A stretch of 32,000 bases of DNA, from assembly GCF_000009965.1 (NCBI RefSeq), contig NC_006624.1, forward strand, positions 1,290,001 to 1,322,000. Direction: 5' to 3'. The DNA is from Thermococcus kodakarensis KOD1 (GTDB lineage Archaea > Methanobacteriota_B > Thermococci > Thermococcales > Thermococcaceae). How positions within the stretch are numbered: position 1 is the stretch's first letter; each line of letters begins with the position of its first letter. A program made the position numbers and the translations under genes. Below the pieces are notes generated by a model. The model did not search any database and had not been told where the DNA came from. It was given only the letters and a program-made list of their open reading frames with translations. Below, in pieces: positions 2,895 through 32,000 of this stretch.

Positions 2895-3302
2895 TCAACT
2901 CCCTGAAACAGTTCCCTGTACTCCCGATTCTTTGTTTTGGTACTCTGTGTAGCCTCCTAAGAATCCCACTAGAAGGCTTGCAACTGGCCAATAGCCGAGA
3001 ATAAACATAATTGGGATTATAACAACGAGAATCAGGGCAGTGAATCTTGGTAATTTGCCGTTAAGGACCGACAGAGTTCCACGCTGAAATATTGAGACTC
3101 CCCACAATGCAATAGCAATGGAGAATGCGAGCTCTAGGGAGTTCCCTTTAATCCACGCTAGAGGACTTATCAAAGAATAGATTACTGGACCTGCTATCAC
3201 TCCTAAAAAATAAATGAGAAGCATATCTTCAAAAAAGGTAAATAGGACTTCAGATAAGTACCTTTCCACCGTCTCCCACCTTTTTATTCTTTGAGTGTAC
3301 AC
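2895..3302 (-). CDS. Small integral membrane protein, function unknown
   Basis: 135-aa ORF with 3-4 hydrophobic helices (LLIYFLGVIAGPVIYSLI, AFSIAIALWGVSIF, ALILVVIIPIMFILGYWPVASLLVGFLGG). GTG start with no clear SD. It lies 33 nt downstream of the 3336-4517 gene on the same strand. AT-rich codon usage. Confidence 0.5.
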   Translation of the reverse strand: MYTQRIKRWETVERYLSEVLFTFFEDMLLIYFLGVIAGPVIYSLISPLAWIKGNSLELAFSIAIALWGVSIFQRGTLSVLNGKLPRFTALILVVIIPIMFILGYWPVASLLVGFLGGYTEYQNKESGVQGTVSGS

Positions 3303-3335: not shown

Positions 3336-4517
3336 TCACCTCCTGTTTATGAACCATGGGTACATTTCCACTGTGAATTCAATTGGAGGTGCTTGGACGG
3401 TGTGCCTTGGGTGGGAAACCCAACAATTGTAGCCCAAGCAGATGATAACATCCTCTTCATAAACGAACTCTGCTTCACCCCTTAGCTTAAGCTCTATCAT
3501 GTGGAATGGTGTTCCCTTTTTAACGAATGGGACAACAACAGGGTGTGCCACGAATATTTTGCCCCACGCGGGAGAGCTGCTCAGTAACCCTTTTTTCTTC
3601 AGGTCATAAAACTGAAATTCAATATCGCGGTTGGCATCGATGTCGTCCGTGTACCATTTGAAAATGAGCCCCTTAGTGTAAGTCTCACTGAAGCCTGCTG
3701 CTGCACTTGGAAGGCCCTTAGCGTCGATCCCTATATTTAAGCCCCAAGTGACGGTTGGCTCTGATGAAGAACCACTGCCTTCTGGCCTGAAACTCCCCAC
3801 GCCAAAGTAGGCTTGTTCAGGTGAGGGATTAAGGATCGTTGCCCTTTCTCTGACCTCCTTAACTGCCACTCGGAAATTCTTAGGGAAATCTCTCTCACTG
3901 GGCACTTTTGCCTCATGGCTCATGTAGACGTAGTAATAATATCCCATTCTTGCTTCGGCTACCCAAAAATCAGCACCAAGCTTGTTGTACACATGAACTT
4001 TGTGCCCCTCTCTGGTTGTTATTTCCTCTGATGTAGTCACCGTGCTAATCCGGCCTATTGACGTCCACTCTCTTGGGGGTTCATCTGCGAGCGCACCTCT
4101 AACTTTGAGAGGGAGCTTTCCGAACTTTCTGGCCTCAATGTAGAAGCTTTTCGTCATGACTTCAACATCCGAGGCCTTAACATCGTACCCGAGGTAATAC
4201 AATGGGGCATACGCTCCTGAGGGAAGTCTTCTCAGGGCAATACCAACGAAAGTAGCATTACTGAACTCTTCAAGGTTTATCCTAAGTGTTAGTCTATCCC
4301 AATATTTCTGCAAAAACTGTTCAGCCATTTGTGTACTGGATTTTCCGGAAAAAGTTTTCAATGCAACATTATCCCCTGGGACTGGCAATGGCAATGAGGG
4401 CTCCTTTTGAGGCGATGGAGAAACTCCAACCTCTTCATACCCTCGAACCTCGGCAAGTACTACGCTGCCAACCACAAGTAGCCCCAGCAGGACTGCGAAC
4501 AAGGGTTTCCACTTCAT
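3336..4517 (-). CDS. Secreted or exported protein of unknown function (N-terminal signal peptide)
   Basis: Start chosen at the internal ATG (4517) because GAGGTG lies about 6 nt upstream. The N-terminus MKWKPLFAVLLGLLVVGSVVLAEV is a typical signal peptide. I recognise no motif in the remaining ~370 aa. Visibly AT-richer than flanking genes. Confidence 0.7.
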   Translation of the reverse strand: MKWKPLFAVLLGLLVVGSVVLAEVRGYEEVGVSPSPQKEPSLPLPVPGDNVALKTFSGKSSTQMAEQFLQKYWDRLTLRINLEEFSNATFVGIALRRLPSGAYAPLYYLGYDVKASDVEVMTKSFYIEARKFGKLPLKVRGALADEPPREWTSIGRISTVTTSEEITTREGHKVHVYNKLGADFWVAEARMGYYYYVYMSHEAKVPSERDFPKNFRVAVKEVRERATILNPSPEQAYFGVGSFRPEGSGSSSEPTVTWGLNIGIDAKGLPSAAAGFSETYTKGLIFKWYTDDIDANRDIEFQFYDLKKKGLLSSSPAWGKIFVAHPVVVPFVKKGTPFHMIELKLRGEAEFVYEEDVIICLGYNCWVSHPRHTVQAPPIEFTVEMYPWFINRR

Positions 4518-5687: not shown

Positions 5688-7055
5688 ATGATATTAAAAT
5701 TCATCGATCGGGAAGAGGAGCTCCGGGCACTTGAGGAGCTTTACGCCCAGGACAAGGCTCACCTCGTCCTCATCTACGGCAGGAGAAGGGTGGGAAAGAC
5801 CGAGCTTGTGAAGCAGTTCATAAATGGAAAGAAGGCCTTCTACTTCCTAGCTAAAAAAGAGCCGATGGAGCTTGAGCTGGATAGGCTCGTAAGGGCCTTC
5901 AACAGGAAGTTCAACGTCTTCATCGAGGCTGAGAACCTTGAGGAGTTCTTTGAGAGAGTAAAAGAGTTCGGAAAGATAGCCTTCGTAATAGACGAGTTCC
6001 CTTACTGGGTTGAGGAAGATAAGGGGATTCCCTCAACATTCCAGTACATCTGGGATGAGGTGCTGAAGGACTCAAAGGTTTTTCTCGTTCTGCTCGGTTC
6101 TTCGATCTCGACGATGGAGAGCCTTATGAGTTACAAGAACCCGCTCTACGGCAGGAGGACTGGTCAGATAAAGCTCCGTCCCCTTGAATTCTTCCACCTG
6201 AAGGAGGCTTTCCCGCGCTACAGCTGGGAGGAGCTCGTTAAGGTCTATGGAACTATAGACGGAATTCCAGCTTACTTCCAGTACTTCGATGACTCTCTTT
6301 CAGTGGAGAAAAACATCGAGAACAACTTCTACAACCGGGTGAGTGTCCTCTATGAAGACGCCGAGAGGTTGCTGAAAGACGAGCTGAGGGAGCCGACTAC
6401 GTACCTCAACATCCTGAAGGCCATAAACGACGGAAAGGCGAAGCTCACGGAGATAGCTAATGAGACGAGGGTCGCTGTGACGAACCTCCCGAAGTACCTC
6501 AAAGTTCTTGAGACCCTCGACCTCGTAAAGAAGGAGTACCCGATAAACCAGAGAAAGCGCGGGCGCGGTGTTTACAGGGTGAAAGACTTTTACCACCGCT
6601 TCTGGCTCCGCTTTGTCTACCCCTACCGCGATGACATAGAGATCGGAGCAATAAGCTTCGAGGACTTCCAGAGCGACTTCAACCGCTACCTCGGCGAGGT
6701 CTTCGAGAGCGTTGCCGGACAGTTCCTGATCAGGATGAACCGTCTCGGAAAGCTGCCCTTCAGGTTTACGAAGCTCGGAAGGTGGTGGCACAAGGGGGAG
6801 GAGATCGACTTGGTTGCCCTCAACAGCATCACAGGGGAAGCGGGCTTTTTCGAGGCCAAGTGGAAGAACTTGAGCGAAAGGGAAGCGAGGGGAATCCTGA
6901 AAGACCTTGAAAGAAAAGCGGAGCTCACGGGAATACCAGGGAATTACTTCGGACTGATCGGGAAGAGGATAGAAGGAAAAGAGAGCCTCAGAGAGAAAGG
7001 CTACCTCGTCTTTGACCTCGAGGATTTCAATGAAGTTGGGGAGGAAGGGCGCTGA
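5688..7055 (+). CDS. Archaeal AAA-type ATPase (Arch_ATPase/COG1672-like) with a DUF234-like C-terminal domain
   Basis: N-terminus MILKFIDREEELRALEELY followed by the Walker A motif GRRRVGKTE. Walker B-like FVIDEF. The C-terminal EIDLVAL...FFEAKWK resembles a PD-(D/E)xK signature. ATG at 5688 is preferred over the TTG at 5631, which overlaps the upstream gene. Confidence 0.85.
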   Translation: MILKFIDREEELRALEELYAQDKAHLVLIYGRRRVGKTELVKQFINGKKAFYFLAKKEPMELELDRLVRAFNRKFNVFIEAENLEEFFERVKEFGKIAFVIDEFPYWVEEDKGIPSTFQYIWDEVLKDSKVFLVLLGSSISTMESLMSYKNPLYGRRTGQIKLRPLEFFHLKEAFPRYSWEELVKVYGTIDGIPAYFQYFDDSLSVEKNIENNFYNRVSVLYEDAERLLKDELREPTTYLNILKAINDGKAKLTEIANETRVAVTNLPKYLKVLETLDLVKKEYPINQRKRGRGVYRVKDFYHRFWLRFVYPYRDDIEIGAISFEDFQSDFNRYLGEVFESVAGQFLIRMNRLGKLPFRFTKLGRWWHKGEEIDLVALNSITGEAGFFEAKWKNLSEREARGILKDLERKAELTGIPGNYFGLIGKRIEGKESLREKGYLVFDLEDFNEVGEEGR

Positions 7056-10229: not shown

Positions 10230-11564
10230 TCACTCAATCTCAACCGTGTATCCGTTCCTCGACACGAAGACATCTCTGCCGATCAGGTAGCCCTCTTCCT
10301 CGGCAAGCTCGGCGTAATGGGTGAGCATCCTGAACTCGCCGTGGGCCGGAACGATGTTCTCAGGGTTGAGCATCCTGAGGAGGTAGCGGTGGTCTTCCCT
10401 GCTCGCGTGGCCGGAGACGTGGAGATCTTTTATCATCCTGACGCCCTTCATCTTGAGTTTTGTCTCCAGGATGTAGCGCTGGGCCCTGTTGAGGGGGTTC
10501 GGTATCGTTCCAGCGGAGAAAACGACCGTATCCTGCTTTCCTATGTCGTAGAGCTCACCGTTGGCCATCCTGGTCAATACTGCCCCCGGTTCACCCTGAT
10601 GGCCCGTAACAACGAGGAGGTAGTTCTCCCTCGCTCCAGAGACTTCAGCGAGGACTTTCTTTATGGCATTCGGGCTTCTGACTGCCCTCGCTCCCTTCAT
10701 CTTTATCAGGCCGAGCTGTTTGGCTATTCCGGTGTACTTCGCCAGAGACCTGCCAACGAAGACGGCCTGCCTGCCCATCTTGTTGGCTATCCAGATAAGC
10801 TCCTGGAGACGGGCTATATGGCTGGCAAAGGTGGTCGCTATGAGACCCTTCTCGTCCATACCCTCGTAGAGGAAGAAGTCTTCCAAGAGCATCTGGGCAA
10901 CGGCCTCGCTCGGTGTCTTAGTCGGCTCTGCGACGCGGGTTGATTCGGCTATGAGAACCTTGACGCCCTCCTTGCCGAGCTCCTTTAGGCGTTTGTAGTC
11001 AGGCCTCTCACCGAGCGGGTTGTTGTTGTCGAACTTGAAGTCGCCGGTGTGGACGACCGCACCCTCGGGAGTGTGGACAACCACCATCGCCGCCTGAGGT
11101 ATCGAGTGAGTTATCCGTACGAACTCTATCGCCAGGTTCTCGCTCACCTGGACTATCTCGCCGAATTCCGTTTCGTACATCGGGTTCTTGACCTCGAAGT
11201 ACTGCTCGCTCTTGACCTCGCTCTTGGCCAGCTTTATCGTGTAAGGAGTCCCGTATATCGGAACGTCCGGGTAGTGAGGTGCTATTTTCCCGACCGCTCC
11301 AATGTGGTCGAGGTGGCCGTGGGTGAACGTTATCGCCACGACCTTCTTGTTTCTCAGAATTGAATCATCGGGTATTGCGCCGAGCCTCTGGAGTTCCTTG
11401 GTCGGGAACTGCTGAATGTTGACATCCTCGTGGATGAGAACGCGGTCGAGCCTTATGCCCATGTCAATTATAACGACTTCCTCTTTCCTGCCGTCAGAAT
11501 AGCCGACGGCGGTCATGTTCTTACCGACTTCCTCGTAGCCGCTGATTGTGTAAACTCTAATCAT
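10230..11564 (-). CDS. rnj: RNase J-like beta-CASP metallo-beta-lactamase ribonuclease (archaeal 5'-3' exoribonuclease)
   Basis: HxHxDH motif (THGHLDHIG), beta-CASP-type conserved Asp/His positions (TGDFKFD, VSGHAS, VPAHGE). The ~444 aa size matches euryarchaeal RNase J. GGAGGAGGAT SD upstream of ATG 11564. Confidence 0.9.
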   Translation of the reverse strand: MIRVYTISGYEEVGKNMTAVGYSDGRKEEVVIIDMGIRLDRVLIHEDVNIQQFPTKELQRLGAIPDDSILRNKKVVAITFTHGHLDHIGAVGKIAPHYPDVPIYGTPYTIKLAKSEVKSEQYFEVKNPMYETEFGEIVQVSENLAIEFVRITHSIPQAAMVVVHTPEGAVVHTGDFKFDNNNPLGERPDYKRLKELGKEGVKVLIAESTRVAEPTKTPSEAVAQMLLEDFFLYEGMDEKGLIATTFASHIARLQELIWIANKMGRQAVFVGRSLAKYTGIAKQLGLIKMKGARAVRSPNAIKKVLAEVSGARENYLLVVTGHQGEPGAVLTRMANGELYDIGKQDTVVFSAGTIPNPLNRAQRYILETKLKMKGVRMIKDLHVSGHASREDHRYLLRMLNPENIVPAHGEFRMLTHYAELAEEEGYLIGRDVFVSRNGYTVEIE

Positions 11565-21254: not shown

Positions 21255-21332
21255 GCCCCGGTGGCCTAGTCTGGATAGGGCGCGAGGCTGCGGACCTCGA
21301 GGTCCGGGGTTCAAATCCCCGCCGGGGCGCCA
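21255..21332 (+). tRNA. tRNA-Arg (anticodon GCG), CCA encoded
   Basis: Acceptor GCCCCGG/CCGGGGC, D stem GCCT/GGGC, anticodon stem CGAGG/CCTCG with loop CTGCGGA, variable AGGTC, T arm CGGGG-TTCAAAT-CCCCG, discriminator G and CCA. Confidence 0.9.
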
Positions 21333-21574
21333 TAGAAACTTTTCTGGCGAAAAGTTTCATCAAAGAGGGAATGTCTTTTTAAACTGCTGAGTTTCAGCTA
21401 TTCTCATTACCAAATTAGCAGTTTTCAAGGGGTTTGCTCGCAGTATAACGCCCAACGAGCGTTAAAAAGAAGAAAAACCCAAATTCTCTTGCCTGTACAT
21501 TAGGAGAATCTCCATTCTCAGCCAATATCACGAAGACATTCAAGCTTTTGGTGAAGCTTTCTCCAAAAGCTTCC
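21333..21574 (+). repeat. Mosaic-array module type I, copy A1 (paralog of 30155-30397)
   Basis: It begins 2 nt after the tRNA CCA with the hairpin GAAACTTTTC-tggc-GAAAAGTTTC (21335-21358). The core hairpin is at 21447-21463. It ends with three AAGCTT hexamers (21542, 21554, 21567). It is alignable by eye over its whole length to B1, at roughly 70-75 percent. Confidence 0.85.
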
Positions 21575-21885
21575 TCGTGAAGTTTGATCAAGTTCGTGGT
21601 TCTCTTGAAATTGCCCTTCTAAAAGGATTTTCACGATAAATTAGCTAAAAGTGAGTGAATTCTTCGAGCATACTTAATTGGAAAGGAGTTTTCTCGCCTT
21701 GACGCCCTATGGGCGTCGATTAAAAAGCAAACTCACAAAGAGCGAGCGAACAAAAATGGAATTCACACTCCAAGACAGCATTCAAAAGGAAATCCACTCA
21801 AAACAACCCTCTAATCAAGAACCACAAACTTTGATGAAACTTTGCCGGGCAAAGTTTCTTTGGTGAAGCTTTCCCAAAAGCTTGC
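21575..21885 (+). repeat. Mosaic-array module type III, copy A2 (paralog of 30659-30946)
   Basis: The ~25-bp terminal inverted repeats 21580-21607 and 21816-21842 close the module. The core hairpin GACGCCC-tat-GGGCGTC is at 21701-21717. The 23-bp palindrome GAAACTTTGCC-g-GGCAAAGTTTC is at 21836-21858, followed by an AAGCTT hairpin at 21866-21883. Confidence 0.85.
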
Positions 21886-29577: not shown

Positions 29578-30018
29578 TCTCGGTTCCTCTTTAACAACCT
29601 GCATGACCACGCTCGTGTTCGTTTTTTCAACGCCGTCGAGCGACAGCAGCCATTTTACAAACCTGTTCATATCAGCCCTGTCCTTGAACTTTGCGATTAC
29701 GAATATATCAAACTCACCGGTGATGTCGTAAACCATCATGGCCCTACCGCTCTCCGCGATTTTTCGCTCAATCTCAATTATTTTCTTCCCCTGGGCCTTA
29801 ACTCCAATTAGGGCAGTCAAACCAAAACCCAGCTTTTCATAGTCAACAATCGGGGCGTATCCCTTAATAACCCCGCTCTCCTCAAGACGCTTAATGCGGT
29901 TGTATACAGTGCCGACAGCCACCCCCAGCTCCTTCGCTATCTCCCTGTAGGAAAGCCTAGCGTTTTTCTGGAGTAATGACAGTATCCTCATGTCAAGCTC
30001 ATCGACCACAATCACCAC
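29560..30018 (-). CDS. Lrp/AsnC-family transcriptional regulator (full length: HTH plus RAM)
   Basis: LDMRILSLLQKNARLSYREIAKELGVAVGTVYNRIKRLEESGVI is the HTH, followed by a RAM domain. GTG start candidates lie at 30018, 30015 and 30009. Confidence 0.88.
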   Translation of the reverse strand: MVIVVDELDMRILSLLQKNARLSYREIAKELGVAVGTVYNRIKRLEESGVIKGYAPIVDYEKLGFGLTALIGVKAQGKKIIEIERKIAESGRAMMVYDITGEFDIFVIAKFKDRADMNRFVKWLLSLDGVEKTNTSVVMQVVKEEPRLSLED

Positions 30019-30038
30019 CGGAGAGAATACACCGTAAA

Positions 30039-30047
30039 CTTTAAATA
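30039..30047 (+). promoter_or_regulatory. TATA box (CTTTAAATA) upstream of tRNA-Arg(CCT); possibly bidirectional
   Basis: It ends 29 nt before the mature tRNA 5' end (30077) and is centred about 26 nt from the GTG start cluster of the divergent Lrp gene. Confidence 0.5.
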
Positions 30048-30076
30048 CCCTTCTCTAAGAGGGATTAGCGGGCAGT

Positions 30077-30154
30077 GGACCGGTAGCCTAGCCAGGATAG
30101 GGCGGCGGCCTCCTAAGCCGCAGGTCCGGGGTTCGAAGCCCCGCCGGTCCGCCA
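30077..30154 (+). tRNA. tRNA-Arg (anticodon CCT), CCA encoded
   Basis: Acceptor GGACCGG/CCGGTCC, D stem GCCT/GGGC, anticodon stem GCGGC/GCCGC with loop CTCCTAA, variable AGGTC, T arm CGGGG-TTCGAAG-CCCCG, discriminator G and CCA. Confidence 0.9.
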
Positions 30155-30397
30155 TAGAAACTTTTCTAATGAAAAGTTTCACCAAAGAGCGAATGTCCTT
30201 TTGAGCGCCCTGCTTTTCAGTGATTCTCACAATCAATTTGCAATTCTCAAGGGGTTTGCTCGGAGTATAACGCCCAAAGGGCGTTAAAAAAGAAGAAAAA
30301 CCCGCACTTCCCTGCCCATCCATCAAGAGAATCTAACCTTATCAAGCCAATTCTCGGAGACATTCGAGCTTTTGGTGAAGCTTTTCCAAAAAGCTTC
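30155..30397 (+). repeat. Mosaic-array module type I, copy B1
   Basis: Hairpin GAAACTTTTC-taat-GAAAAGTTTC at 30157-30180. Core hairpin AACGCCC-aaa-GGGCGTT at 30269-30285. Terminal GAGCTT/AAGCTT/AAGCTT triplet at 30366, 30378 and 30391. Collinear with A1. Confidence 0.85.
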
Positions 30398-30658
30398 AGC
30401 GCTGGCGGAAGATTGGTATGCTTTCTTTTTAGATATGCCTGCTTTTGAAGGGTTTACTTCCAATTGGCTGATTCAAAAGGATTTTCTCACCGTATAGTGC
30501 CCGAAGGGCACTAAAAAGAAAGTCAAAAATCACAATTAGCGCGGGGATTTTGGAGTTAAACCCGCGCGAGCCTGCCTTCTTGAGAGCATACACTCCCTAA
30601 CAGGCGAGATCGAGGAGAAGGGCACACACTTTTGGTGAAGCTTTTTCTAAAAGCTTCC
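30398..30658 (+). repeat. Mosaic-array module type II, copy B2
   Basis: It starts AGCGCTGGCGGAAG. Core hairpin AGTGCCC-gaa-GGGCACT at 30496-30512. Long-range complement GTATGCT (30416-30422) / AGCATAC (30585-30591). It ends with the hairpin GAAGCTTTT-tct-AAAAGCTTC (30637-30657). Collinear with B4 at about 70 percent by eye. Confidence 0.85.
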
Positions 30659-30946
30659 TGCGCGAAGTTTGATCAAGGTTCGTAGCTCTTTTTCGGAATG
30701 CCAATTCACCGTGATTTTCCAACTCAAATGGCTTTTTGAGAGTGAGAACCCTTAATCCACCCTGTCAACTCGTGTTTAACTCTAAATCGGCGCCCTTTGG
30801 GCGTCAAAGAAAAGAAAACACCCTCTTCAAGAAGCTTCCTAAAAGGTTCTCACTCAAAAATGAGCACTTGCAGTCTAAAATCCTAAAATAAAACCCTCTT
30901 GAAGAAGAGCTACAAACTTTGATGAAACTTTGCCTGGCAAAGTTTC
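30659..30946 (+). repeat. Mosaic-array module type III, copy B3
   Basis: The 30-nt terminal inverted repeats 30665-30694 and 30901-30930 match at 26/30. Core hairpin GGCGCCC-ttt-GGGCGTC at 30789-30805. It ends with the 23-bp palindrome GAAACTTTGCC-t-GGCAAAGTTTC at 30924-30946. Confidence 0.85.
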
Positions 30947-31205
30947 AGCGCCGGCGGAAAAGAGGTATGCGTTTTTAATGAACTAATTTTTGAGTGGGTT
31001 TACTTTCGAGTTGCCAGACTTACAGGATTTTCCCCACAGTATAGTGCTCTTTGAGCGCTAAAAAGAAAGTTCGAAATCACAATTAACGAGAGATTTTTAA
31101 GAACAAACCCACACGCGAACCTGCTTTCTGGGGAGCATACACTCCCGATAAGCAAAGTTCGAGAAGAAGGGCACACTTTTGGTCAAGCTTTTTCCAAAAG
31201 CTTGC
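30947..31205 (+). repeat. Mosaic-array module type II, copy B4
   Basis: It starts AGCGCCGGCGGAAA. Core hairpin AGTGCTC-ttt-GAGCGCT at 31043-31059. It ends with the hairpin AAGCTTTT-tcc-AAAAGCTT (31185-31203). Confidence 0.85.
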
Positions 31206-31274
31206 TGGAAACGAAAGGCTTAAATACTTCAACACTTTTATTTTCTTCAGGTAAGAAAAAAGGAGGTGGTGGCC

Positions 31275-32000
31275 ATGGTGTACGTGGCCGTTCTTGCAAA
31301 CATCAACGGCAACCTTCCAGCACTGGCAAAGGCCCTTGAAAAGATAGAGGCCCTAAAGGAGGAAGGGTACGAAATAGAGAAGTACTATGTTCTGGGCAAC
31401 ATCGTTGGTCTGTTCCCGTACCCGAAGGAAGTCCTTGACGCTCTTGATGACCTCATCAGAAACAACACAGTCAAGGTCATCAGGGGTGAGTTCGACCAGG
31501 TAATAGCCGAGAGCGATCCCCACGCGGAAGGACCGGACTACATTGACAAGGTTGAATATCCCGACTACATAAAGAAGGCCCTCAAGTACACCTGGGAAGC
31601 CCTTGGTCACGAAGGGCGCGAGTTCATAAGGGACCTTCCAATATACCTTGTCGACAAGATTGGAAAGAACGACATATTCGGAGTCTATGGAAGTCCTCTG
31701 AACCCGTTTGGAGGAGTTGTACTGCCAGACCAGCCGACCAGCTACTACGAAGCCATCATGAGGCCGGTCAAAGACTATGAGATACTCTTTGTTGCATCAC
31801 CCAAGTATCCGGTCAACGCTATGACCCGCTACGGTAGGGTCATCTGTCCCGGAAGCATTGGATACCCACCGGGCAAGAACCACAAAGCAACCTTTGCCCT
31901 CGTTGATGTGGACACTCTACACACCAAGTTCATAGAAGTGGACTATGATGACGAGAAAAAGCTCATAGAGGAGAAAATCAAGAAAGAGGGCCTTCCGGAA
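31275..32000 (+). CDS. Metallophosphoesterase-fold protein (YfcE/MJ0936-like) with degenerate metal-binding motifs; 3' end beyond the window
   Basis: It is absent from the ORF track because there is no in-window stop. The ATG is preceded by AGGAGGTG at a 6-nt spacing, and the frame is open for 242 codons to the window end. It is collinear with the calcineurin-like phosphoesterase family (..GN....L...I......G......LGx.VG..P, ..PGS.G.P), but the ligand positions are substituted (see findings). Confidence 0.8.
   Translation, partial: MVYVAVLANINGNLPALAKALEKIEALKEEGYEIEKYYVLGNIVGLFPYPKEVLDALDDLIRNNTVKVIRGEFDQVIAESDPHAEGPDYIDKVEYPDYIKKALKYTWEALGHEGREFIRDLPIYLVDKIGKNDIFGVYGSPLNPFGGVVLPDQPTSYYEAIMRPVKDYEILFVASPKYPVNAMTRYGRVICPGSIGYPPGKNHKATFALVDVDTLHTKFIEVDYDDEKKLIEEKIKKEGLPE

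Follow-up and report, generated by a model that had tools for sequence, protein, structure and literature searches.

Covarying GC hairpins at the tips of foldback repeats that follow tRNA genes in Thermococcus

MITEs and foldback elements are non-coding, multi-copy sequences of less than 400 bp with terminal inverted repeats of about 40 bp; they are intergenic, are present or absent according to strain and have a strong potential for secondary structure. All of this also describes the modules that lie behind two tRNA-Arg genes in the 32-kb stretch of Thermococcus kodakarensis DNA analysed here (the window). The modules differ from MITEs in their fixed orientation relative to the tRNA, their exact start past the CCA and their tandem arrays with shared ends, and neither a target-site duplication was seen nor an autonomous relative found. 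REP, BIME, REPIN and ERIC sequences are likewise extragenic palindromes that are kept by compensated changes and clustered in mosaics, and REPINs resemble the modules further in being doublets that fold into long hairpins. Compensatory substitutions are seen in ERIC. In contrast to REP sequences, the modules are archaeal, measure about 250-300 nt rather than 20-40 nt and are tied to tRNA 3′ ends, and no RAYT-type (IS200-like Y1) transposase was seen with them. Integron attC arrays and IMEX at dif also consist of tandem imperfect palindromes beside one anchor, with recognition of the folded structure, but the modules are several times the length of attC and have no nearby integrase, no GTTRRRY/RYYYAAC core sites and no cassette ORFs. 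The attC core sites R″ and R′ have the consensus RYYYAAC and GTTRRRY, which the GAAAC/GTTTC ends of the modules do not fit, and membership of this class was rejected. Casposon-derived MITEs and archaeal elements that target tRNA 3′ ends share insertion at that position and possible accumulation in tandem, although the modules have 19 tRNA targets, showed no target-site duplication and were not seen with Cas1 or integrase genes. The repeated ncRNAs sRk48/52 and sRkB/C of P. abyssi, which are related to the 3′ end of orphan OrfB/TnpB genes, are again intergenic repeats of Thermococcales with conserved, covarying stems, some of them expressed (PMC3124441). They are set apart by their description, since they carry K-turn or K-loop motifs and resemble TnpB gene ends (PMC3124441), neither of which is seen in the modules.

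Each module is a non-coding unit of 240-310 nt bounded by inverted copies of a palindromic element of 27-30 nt, here called h (TTTGRTGAARCTTT-loop-AAAGYTTC), with a short tail. The layout of h is that of two inverted arms of 9-11 bp around a 3-6-bp centre, and the h elements act as punctuation shared between modules placed head to tail. The two arrays, A (modules A1 and A2) and B (modules B1 to B4), are made up as follows, in window coordinates.

21255-21332, plus strand: tRNA-Arg(GCG) (ARAGORN, Rfam); array A begins 2 nt past its CCA
21335-21364, minus strand: h (GAAAC type), palindrome beside the tRNA, tail CATCAAAG pointing into A1
21430-21480, plus strand: A1 core; outer helix GGGTTT (21430-21435)/AAACCC (21475-21480), hairpin AACGCCC-aac-GAGCGTT (21447-21463)
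21547-21573, plus strand: h (GAAGC type) closing A1
21686-21734, plus strand: A2 core; outer helix GAGTTT/AAACTC, hairpin GACGCCC-tat-GGGCGTC (21701-21717)
21830-21884, plus strand: two adjacent h closing array A, of GAAAC type (21830-21858) and GAAGC type (21859-21884)
30077-30154, plus strand: tRNA-Arg(CCT) (ARAGORN, Rfam); array B begins 2 nt past its CCA
30157-30186, minus strand: h (GAAAC type) beside tRNA-Arg(CCT)
30252-30303, plus strand: B1 core; outer helix GGGTTT/AAACCC, hairpin AACGCCC-aaa-GGGCGTT (30269-30285)
30371-30397, plus strand: h closing B1
30480-30531, plus strand: B2 core; outer helix GATTTT/AAAATC, hairpin AGTGCCC-gaa-GGGCACT (30496-30512)
30631-30657, plus strand: h closing B2
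30772-30821, plus strand: B3 core; outer helix GTGTTT/AAACAC, hairpin GGCGCCC-ttt-GGGCGTC (30789-30805)
30918-30946, plus strand: h closing B3
31026-31078, plus strand: B4 core; outer helix GATTT/AAATC, hairpin AGTGCTC-ttt-GAGCGCT (31043-31059)
31178-31204, plus strand: h, degenerate (GGTC/…CTTG), closing array B

The h copy adjoining each tRNA is inverted, with its palindrome abutting the tRNA and its tail (CAYCAAAG) pointing into the first module, and this tail pairs with the tail of the next h. Terminal inverted repeats are present, the ends GAAACTTTGC..GCAAAGTTTCATCAAAGTTnGTAGCTC and GAGCTACnAACTTTTGGTGAAGCTTTT..AAAAGCTTC being inverted complements, and no module contains an ORF of 80 aa or more. 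The window holds seven exact matches to h, against none in shuffled sequence, and two degenerate copies. The six modules sort into three pairs (A1/B1, A2/B3 and B2/B4), and in each a tract of T4-T5 can be read 40-50 nt from its start.

Over its full length a module folds into a long imperfect hairpin, and the GC hairpin lies at the tip or close to it. Relative to shuffled sequences the z-score is -5.4 for B1 and -6.1 for B3, where 30650-30948 forms a single long imperfect hairpin, but only -1.9 for B2. An alignment of 16 sequences from one subfamily, B3 included, gives a rod of 61 pairs, in which conservation is concentrated in complementary blocks (GTAGCTC/GAGCTAC, GAGAAC/GTTCTC, GGTTT/AAACC and the hairpin) with variable stretches between them. 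The consensus fold has at its base an 8-bp helix, a 2x2 internal loop and a 9-bp helix, with no 3-4-3 motif of the bulge-helix-bulge (BHB) kind seen. At least five helices are conserved in each module, namely tail:tail, GTAGCTC/GAGCTAC, GAGAAC/GTTCTC, GGGTTT/AAACCC and the GC hairpin, and together they give the element the predicted shape of a rod with the 7-bp/3-nt hairpin at its end. Each GC hairpin is the tip of a foldback repeat of about 250-300 bases, and a role as an RNA motif in its own right is not demonstrated. At the junction of B2 and B3 (30647-30682) the right arm of the h closing B2 (AAAAGCTTC) can alternatively pair with the start of B3 (GAAGTTTG), giving overlapping alternative hairpins at module junctions.

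Two classes of guide RNA were considered for the modules and rejected. Archaeal H/ACA RNAs do not fit the 3-nt apical loop or the lack of a GA/AG motif and of a K-loop, and ACA is found in three of the six window copies. For box C/D sRNAs, h does contain UGAUGA/UGGUGA, but neither strand has a CUGA at the spacing that a guide needs, and Rfam reports no snoRNA.

The first-pass annotation of this DNA described six hairpins with a 7-bp stem and 3-nt loop, and a direct check of the sequence finds all of them at exactly the positions given there, with the same non-Watson-Crick pairs (C.A in A1, G.T in B3 and T.G in B4). Ten perfect Watson-Crick hairpins of these dimensions occur in the whole window, three being module cores, five the h palindromes of the same arrays and two unrelated. 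The GG(R)(K)TTT motif that had been remarked on upstream is present, and is better described as the 5′ strand of a second, outer helix of 5-6 bp, which also covaries: its partner strand is AAAYYC, located 10-14 nt beyond the hairpin on the 3′ side, in the versions GGGTTT/AAACCC, GAGTTT/AAACTC, GTGTTT/AAACAC and GATTTT/AAAATC within the window. The columns past the outer helix are T/C-rich. GTAT, which had been counted upstream of five copies, precedes four of the six, and the context described as AT-rich is only mildly so (41-49% GC, against about 52% for the window).

A covariance model of the core, comprising two helices and 13 pairs, matched the six copies and nothing else in the window (E<0.01). 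In 762 kb of Thermococcaceae loci 115 matches were obtained at E≤0.001, counting both strands, and 303 kb of loci from other archaea, bacteria and viruses, with h-like motifs in them, gave none at E≤0.1, which argues that the core is specific to the clade and h is not. It had been proposed that the motif would fall if an Infernal search returned no further instances and covariation was not significant; many further copies were found, and the covariation persists. A genome scan with the h pattern recovered, among the matches listed, Thermococcus loci with h directly after tRNA-Arg(TCG), tRNA-Arg(TCT) and tRNA-Leu(GAG); its output consisted largely of an unrelated repeat of the Acetobacteraceae and also included many archaea other than Thermococcus. 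A metagenome scan with the Thermococcus variant of h yielded 113 loci from hydrothermal vents.

From these copies 98 unique modules were anchored on the flanking h alone, the hairpin not being used in the choice. A perfect 7/3 hairpin (G.U allowed) with at least five GC pairs lies 100-169 nt from h in 63 of the 98, its start being 110-149 nt from h in all but one of the 63, whereas composition-preserving shuffles of the same segments would be expected to contain 0.19 such hairpins. When loops of 3-8 nt were allowed, the loop was of 3 nt in 74 of 81 cases and the uninterrupted stem of 7 bp in 50 of 81. Other GC 7-bp/3-nt hairpins form short linker modules between the main modules of some arrays (L203 ~1320-1370; L253; L060, reverse complement, ~400-460; L050, reverse complement, ~380-440), with the sequences GTGGGGC-ttc-GCCCCAC, GTCGAGC-ttt-GCTCGAC, TTGAGGC-ctc-GCCTCAA and GGGAAGC-ttc-GCTTCCC.

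The compensated changes reported for the window hold in this wider sample of copies. The stems are diverse (GCGCTCC, GACGCCC, AGCGCCC, AATGCCC, GGCGTCC and others) and the changes are paired. Among 70 distinct stems placed in register, 92.9% of cells are paired, as against 58.2% with shuffled partners (none of 500 shuffles was as high), each of the seven pairs has changed on both sides, and a shift of the partner by 1-3 columns lowers pairing to 34-50%. The windows for this set were picked for best pairing, and the independent evidence is the h-anchored shuffle test above. MAFFT misaligned the GCGCTCC class, and the register was forced with artificial constant anchors before pairs were counted. 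In the model-based alignment the hairpin is 95.8% paired, with five of its seven pairs changed on both sides, and the outer helix 81.3% paired, making 11 of 13 pairs overall changed on both sides; many rows are from related strains, so that cells are not independent events. The purine-rich 3′ flank was of no use in orienting copies, since the flanks are complementary and both strands look alike. The GC hairpins are real, and their pairing is kept by matched base changes.

The link to tRNA genes is precise. In the Thermococcaceae loci h starts 0-6 nt, mostly 2-3 nt, past the 3′ end of 61 of 174 tRNA genes, representing 19 isoacceptors, a fraction that is inflated by the selection of most loci for h, although the geometry is not. 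At these 174 genes h is always palindrome-first; the opposite orientation does not occur, nor does h at a 5′ end. Among loci chosen without regard to h type, the h nearest the tRNA is of the GAAAC type in 11 of 11 cases and the distal h of the first module of the GAAGC type in six of seven, so the polarity of the first module is fixed, unlike that of a randomly inserting inverted-repeat transposon. Modules stack with this one polarity in tandem arrays behind many different tRNA genes. Some arrays lie between two convergent tRNA genes, and each of these genes has a variant of h of its own behind it, such as CAAACTTCGC-ctgc-GCGAAGTTTG (L170 ~3970-4000; L234, reverse complement).

Copies occur in the 113 metagenome loci and in several genomes, and fall into at least four subfamilies above 150 nt of BLAST similarity, with clusters of 23, 17, 7 and 6 members and smaller groups. 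In the Thermococcaceae loci 62 of 74 inverted pairs of h are spaced 200-299 nt apart. The SRP54 protein of the window is 93% identical to that of T. eurythermalis, and arrays differ even among strains with an identical SRP54 protein (L122, L123 and L124). At syntenic loci from T. eurythermalis, two strains with the same SRP54, T. onnurineus, T. piezophilus, T. barophilus, T. camini and T. gammatolerans, the DNA past tRNA-Arg(CCT) is unrelated and holds from zero to four modules, and behind one tRNA (…GGCGGGGCTACCA) any of three different subfamilies, or no element at all, is found according to the contig. Modules are gained, lost and replaced quickly. In T. eurythermalis and relatives a TROVE/Ro60-like gene lies beside a pyridine-nucleotide disulphide oxidoreductase gene (L121 and L125, 1-1240; L122, 1-1079), at the position occupied in the window by tRNA-Gly, tRNA-Arg and array A. 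A small conserved ORF (M[I/V]EDALLLY…KKKKK…), preceded by GGAGGTGA, lies upstream of a metallophosphoesterase gene in five relatives (L122 ~10580-10670, L123, L127, L132 and L134) and is missing from 31205-31275 of the window, where array B ends.

Neither a transposase, an integrase nor a longer autonomous element with the same ends was found in about 0.9 Mb, and among the Thermococcaceae loci there was no longer h-bounded element with an ORF and no inverted h pair more than 450 nt apart enclosing a sizeable one. No neighbouring protein family recurs in more than seven of the 113 loci, none of the recurrent ones being a transposase, and a possible integrase-like ORF family is seen in only four. 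The 10 scanned window ORFs flanking both arrays include no integrase, nor is one linked to the arrays among the locus neighbours. No TnpB was found near any Thermococcus array, and same-orientation hairpins of the LE/RE style were not seen. No repeat of the flanks that might mark a target-site duplication was seen at the tRNA-adjacent copies. Plasmid, phage and IMG/VR viral contig collections contained no copies. At gathering thresholds Rfam returned tRNAs only, a search of 30000-31300 in E-value mode gave nothing credible, and searches of the literature, both by sequence words and by topic, turned up no account of such elements. The repeat family is common in one Thermococcus clade and, with no description found in Rfam or the literature, appears so far undescribed.

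We give about an even chance to the reading that the modules are a non-autonomous foldback repeat family, similar to MITE, REP or ERIC sequences, whose propagation or function needs folding as a single strand. The modules fall short of the MITE class proper on three counts: orientation is non-random, no autonomous partner was found and target duplication is not demonstrated. How the modules spread we infer as follows. Copying or integration of the element would take place at h sites and would require the self-folding of one strand, and candidates for this are a single-stranded DNA intermediate or a recombinase or structure-specific enzyme acting on extruded hairpins. The all-GC triloop hairpin would be the nucleation point. 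It had been singled out as the part most likely to fold, and it is indeed the sole part predicted to be paired at about 85°C, with energies at 85°C of -1 to -4 kcal/mol, although A1 and B4 are predicted to melt. Lineages that lose hairpin pairing would stop propagating, and it is proposed that stems differ between subfamilies yet are almost always complementary for this reason.

Some features sit less well with a foldback repeat. Fixed polarity relative to the tRNA is unexpected for a simple terminal-inverted-repeat transposon, the excess of GAA over TTC loops (26:10 overall and 11:3 in the tRNA sense) amounts to some strand asymmetry, and the conservation of paired blocks across diverged copies, with their tight size, would also fit a functional RNA. 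The main rival reading, unlikely but serious, is that the modules are structured non-coding RNA genes, extending or adjoining the tRNA transcripts, processed and perhaps circularised; the RNA would be rod-shaped, and the GC hairpin would form its thermostable tip and a handle for protein binding. The covariation of two helices, the constant length and loop size, the conserved paired blocks with variable internal loops, the fixed polarity and 0-6-nt spacing past the CCA and the GAA bias of the loops in the tRNA sense are all consistent with this, as is the U.G in the tail helix, which is near-fixed on the tRNA-sense strand (14 of 16). Folding of 23 tRNA-adjacent metagenome copies points the same way, the tRNA-sense strand being more stable by about 7 kcal/mol (p = 0.013), although four of the six window modules (A1, A2, B1 and B3) favour the antisense strand. 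An RNA gene would also accord with the tRNA-sense orientation of h within tRNA introns of many other archaea, and T. kodakarensis has a documented co-transcript in which a small RNA lies downstream of tRNA-Arg (PMC4247193).

The wobble pairs of the window had been taken, by two to one but not decisively, to favour the plus (tRNA) strand as RNA, an argument that disappears in the larger sample. The non-canonical positions in stems chosen by Watson-Crick pairs only comprise 12 G.T, 12 A.C and 9 others, and the tRNA-adjacent copies read in the tRNA sense have 8 G.T, 6 A.C and 4 others. An RNA gene would be expected to show an excess of G.U, and the equality of G.T and A.C fits a constraint at the level of DNA, or on either strand, better; an RNA role of the plus strand is not established. 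The T4-T5 tracts would probably stop archaeal read-through from the tRNA, the modules have no Rfam match, and variation of presence and type among close strains would be unusual for a needed RNA.

It is quite unlikely that the palindromes instead act as DNA, in double-stranded or cruciform form, with the GC hairpin and h as binding or crossover sites of a dimeric protein, for example a tyrosine recombinase, and that the arrays are serial site-specific integrations beside tRNA genes, as with Xer/dif exploiters or integron cassettes. The layout of h is that of a recombinase core site, h in direct orientation punctuates the tandem arrays, mismatches show no strand bias, and the tRNA loci of Thermococcus are hot spots of recombination (PMC5495485). 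The sequence of the GC stem, on the other hand, varies freely across subfamilies, which suggests recognition of structure rather than sequence, and neither the lack of an array-linked integrase nor that of copies in plasmid, phage and viral collections would be expected. Such a site is possible for h and a poor fit for the sequence-variable GC stem.

A rather improbable reading takes the modules, together with their h ends, as an element that is mobile or processed at the level of RNA and is linked to the machinery of tRNA maturation. Such a route is conceivable because h is found in the tRNA introns of DPANN archaea and methanogens, in the tRNA sense, and directly past the CCA in Thermococcus. 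Spread, or excision and circularisation, might then proceed through pre-tRNA processing, by ligation to or priming from the tRNA 3′ end or by an endonuclease and ligase, and the products would be rod-shaped RNAs of about 280 nt with a thermostable GC tip. A role of the hairpins in terminating transcription of the tRNA genes upstream, or in insulating these genes, is very improbable and was rejected: they have a GC stem and lie downstream of tRNA genes, but on neither strand does a T run follow any of the six (an A run follows on the plus strand and ATAC on the minus strand), a terminator scan does not flag the cores, they lie 110-150 nt past the tRNA and beyond the earlier T tracts, and up to four serial copies would be redundant.

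If the foldback-repeat reading is true, a Thermococcus clade carries an abundant, undescribed repeat family that turns over between strains and marks the 3′ flank of about a third of the sampled tRNA genes, in loci mostly chosen for h. Different tRNA loci would thereby gain long shared sequence. Conserved sequence just past two tRNA-Gly genes served as a crossover region in Thermococcus chromosomal inversions (PMC5495485), and because shared post-tRNA sequence of this kind has been seen at a crossover, the repeats may help to explain the shuffling of Thermococcus genomes. The modules would also be a natural example of structure kept at about 85°C by a 7-bp GC triloop hairpin, and the h end element ties the family to a hairpin in the tRNA introns of distant archaea.

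Several observations concern h outside the Thermococcus arrays. The form GAAACTTTT-N3-5-AAAAGTTTC-ATCAAAA occurs in contigs of Micrarchaeota, Woesearchaeota, Aenigmatarchaeota, Nanoarchaeia, Altiarchaeota, Methanobacteriaceae and Methanocaldococcus. As GAAACTTTT-N3-5-AAAAGTTTCATCAAAA, of 27-31 nt, it is a hairpin of tRNA introns in DPANN and other archaea of several phyla, always in the tRNA-sense orientation and at both canonical and non-canonical intron positions (L007 4381-4509, L028 6197-6312, L041 4278-4389, L058 4634-4743 and L105 2881-2983; also L068, L077, L078 and L084). Together with a sister palindrome, GAAAGATTTTAGAAAAATCTTTCAGC, h forms tandem intergenic copies in AT-rich contigs of archaea and viruses, placed either just past the end of a gene or ahead of a promoter (L040 ~3730-3790, L087 ~3190-3250, L009 ~6480-6565, L052 6126-6153 and 6729-6755, L138 3310-3420 and L144 4300-4640). 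In a Micrarchaeia contig a 27-nt copy (L044 109-135) lies in frame near the 5′ end of a TnpB/OrfB-like ORF (MEVTRAYKFRIYPDAKKQ…). The Acetobacteraceae repeat, which matches the h pattern by sequence, is a high-copy GC hairpin followed by GAAGCTTTTTGGAAAAAGCTTCACCAAAA in Komagataeibacter, Novacetimonas and Acetobacter (L003-L005, L008, L010, L137, L141, L149 and many others). Between variants of h the arms of the palindrome themselves covary.
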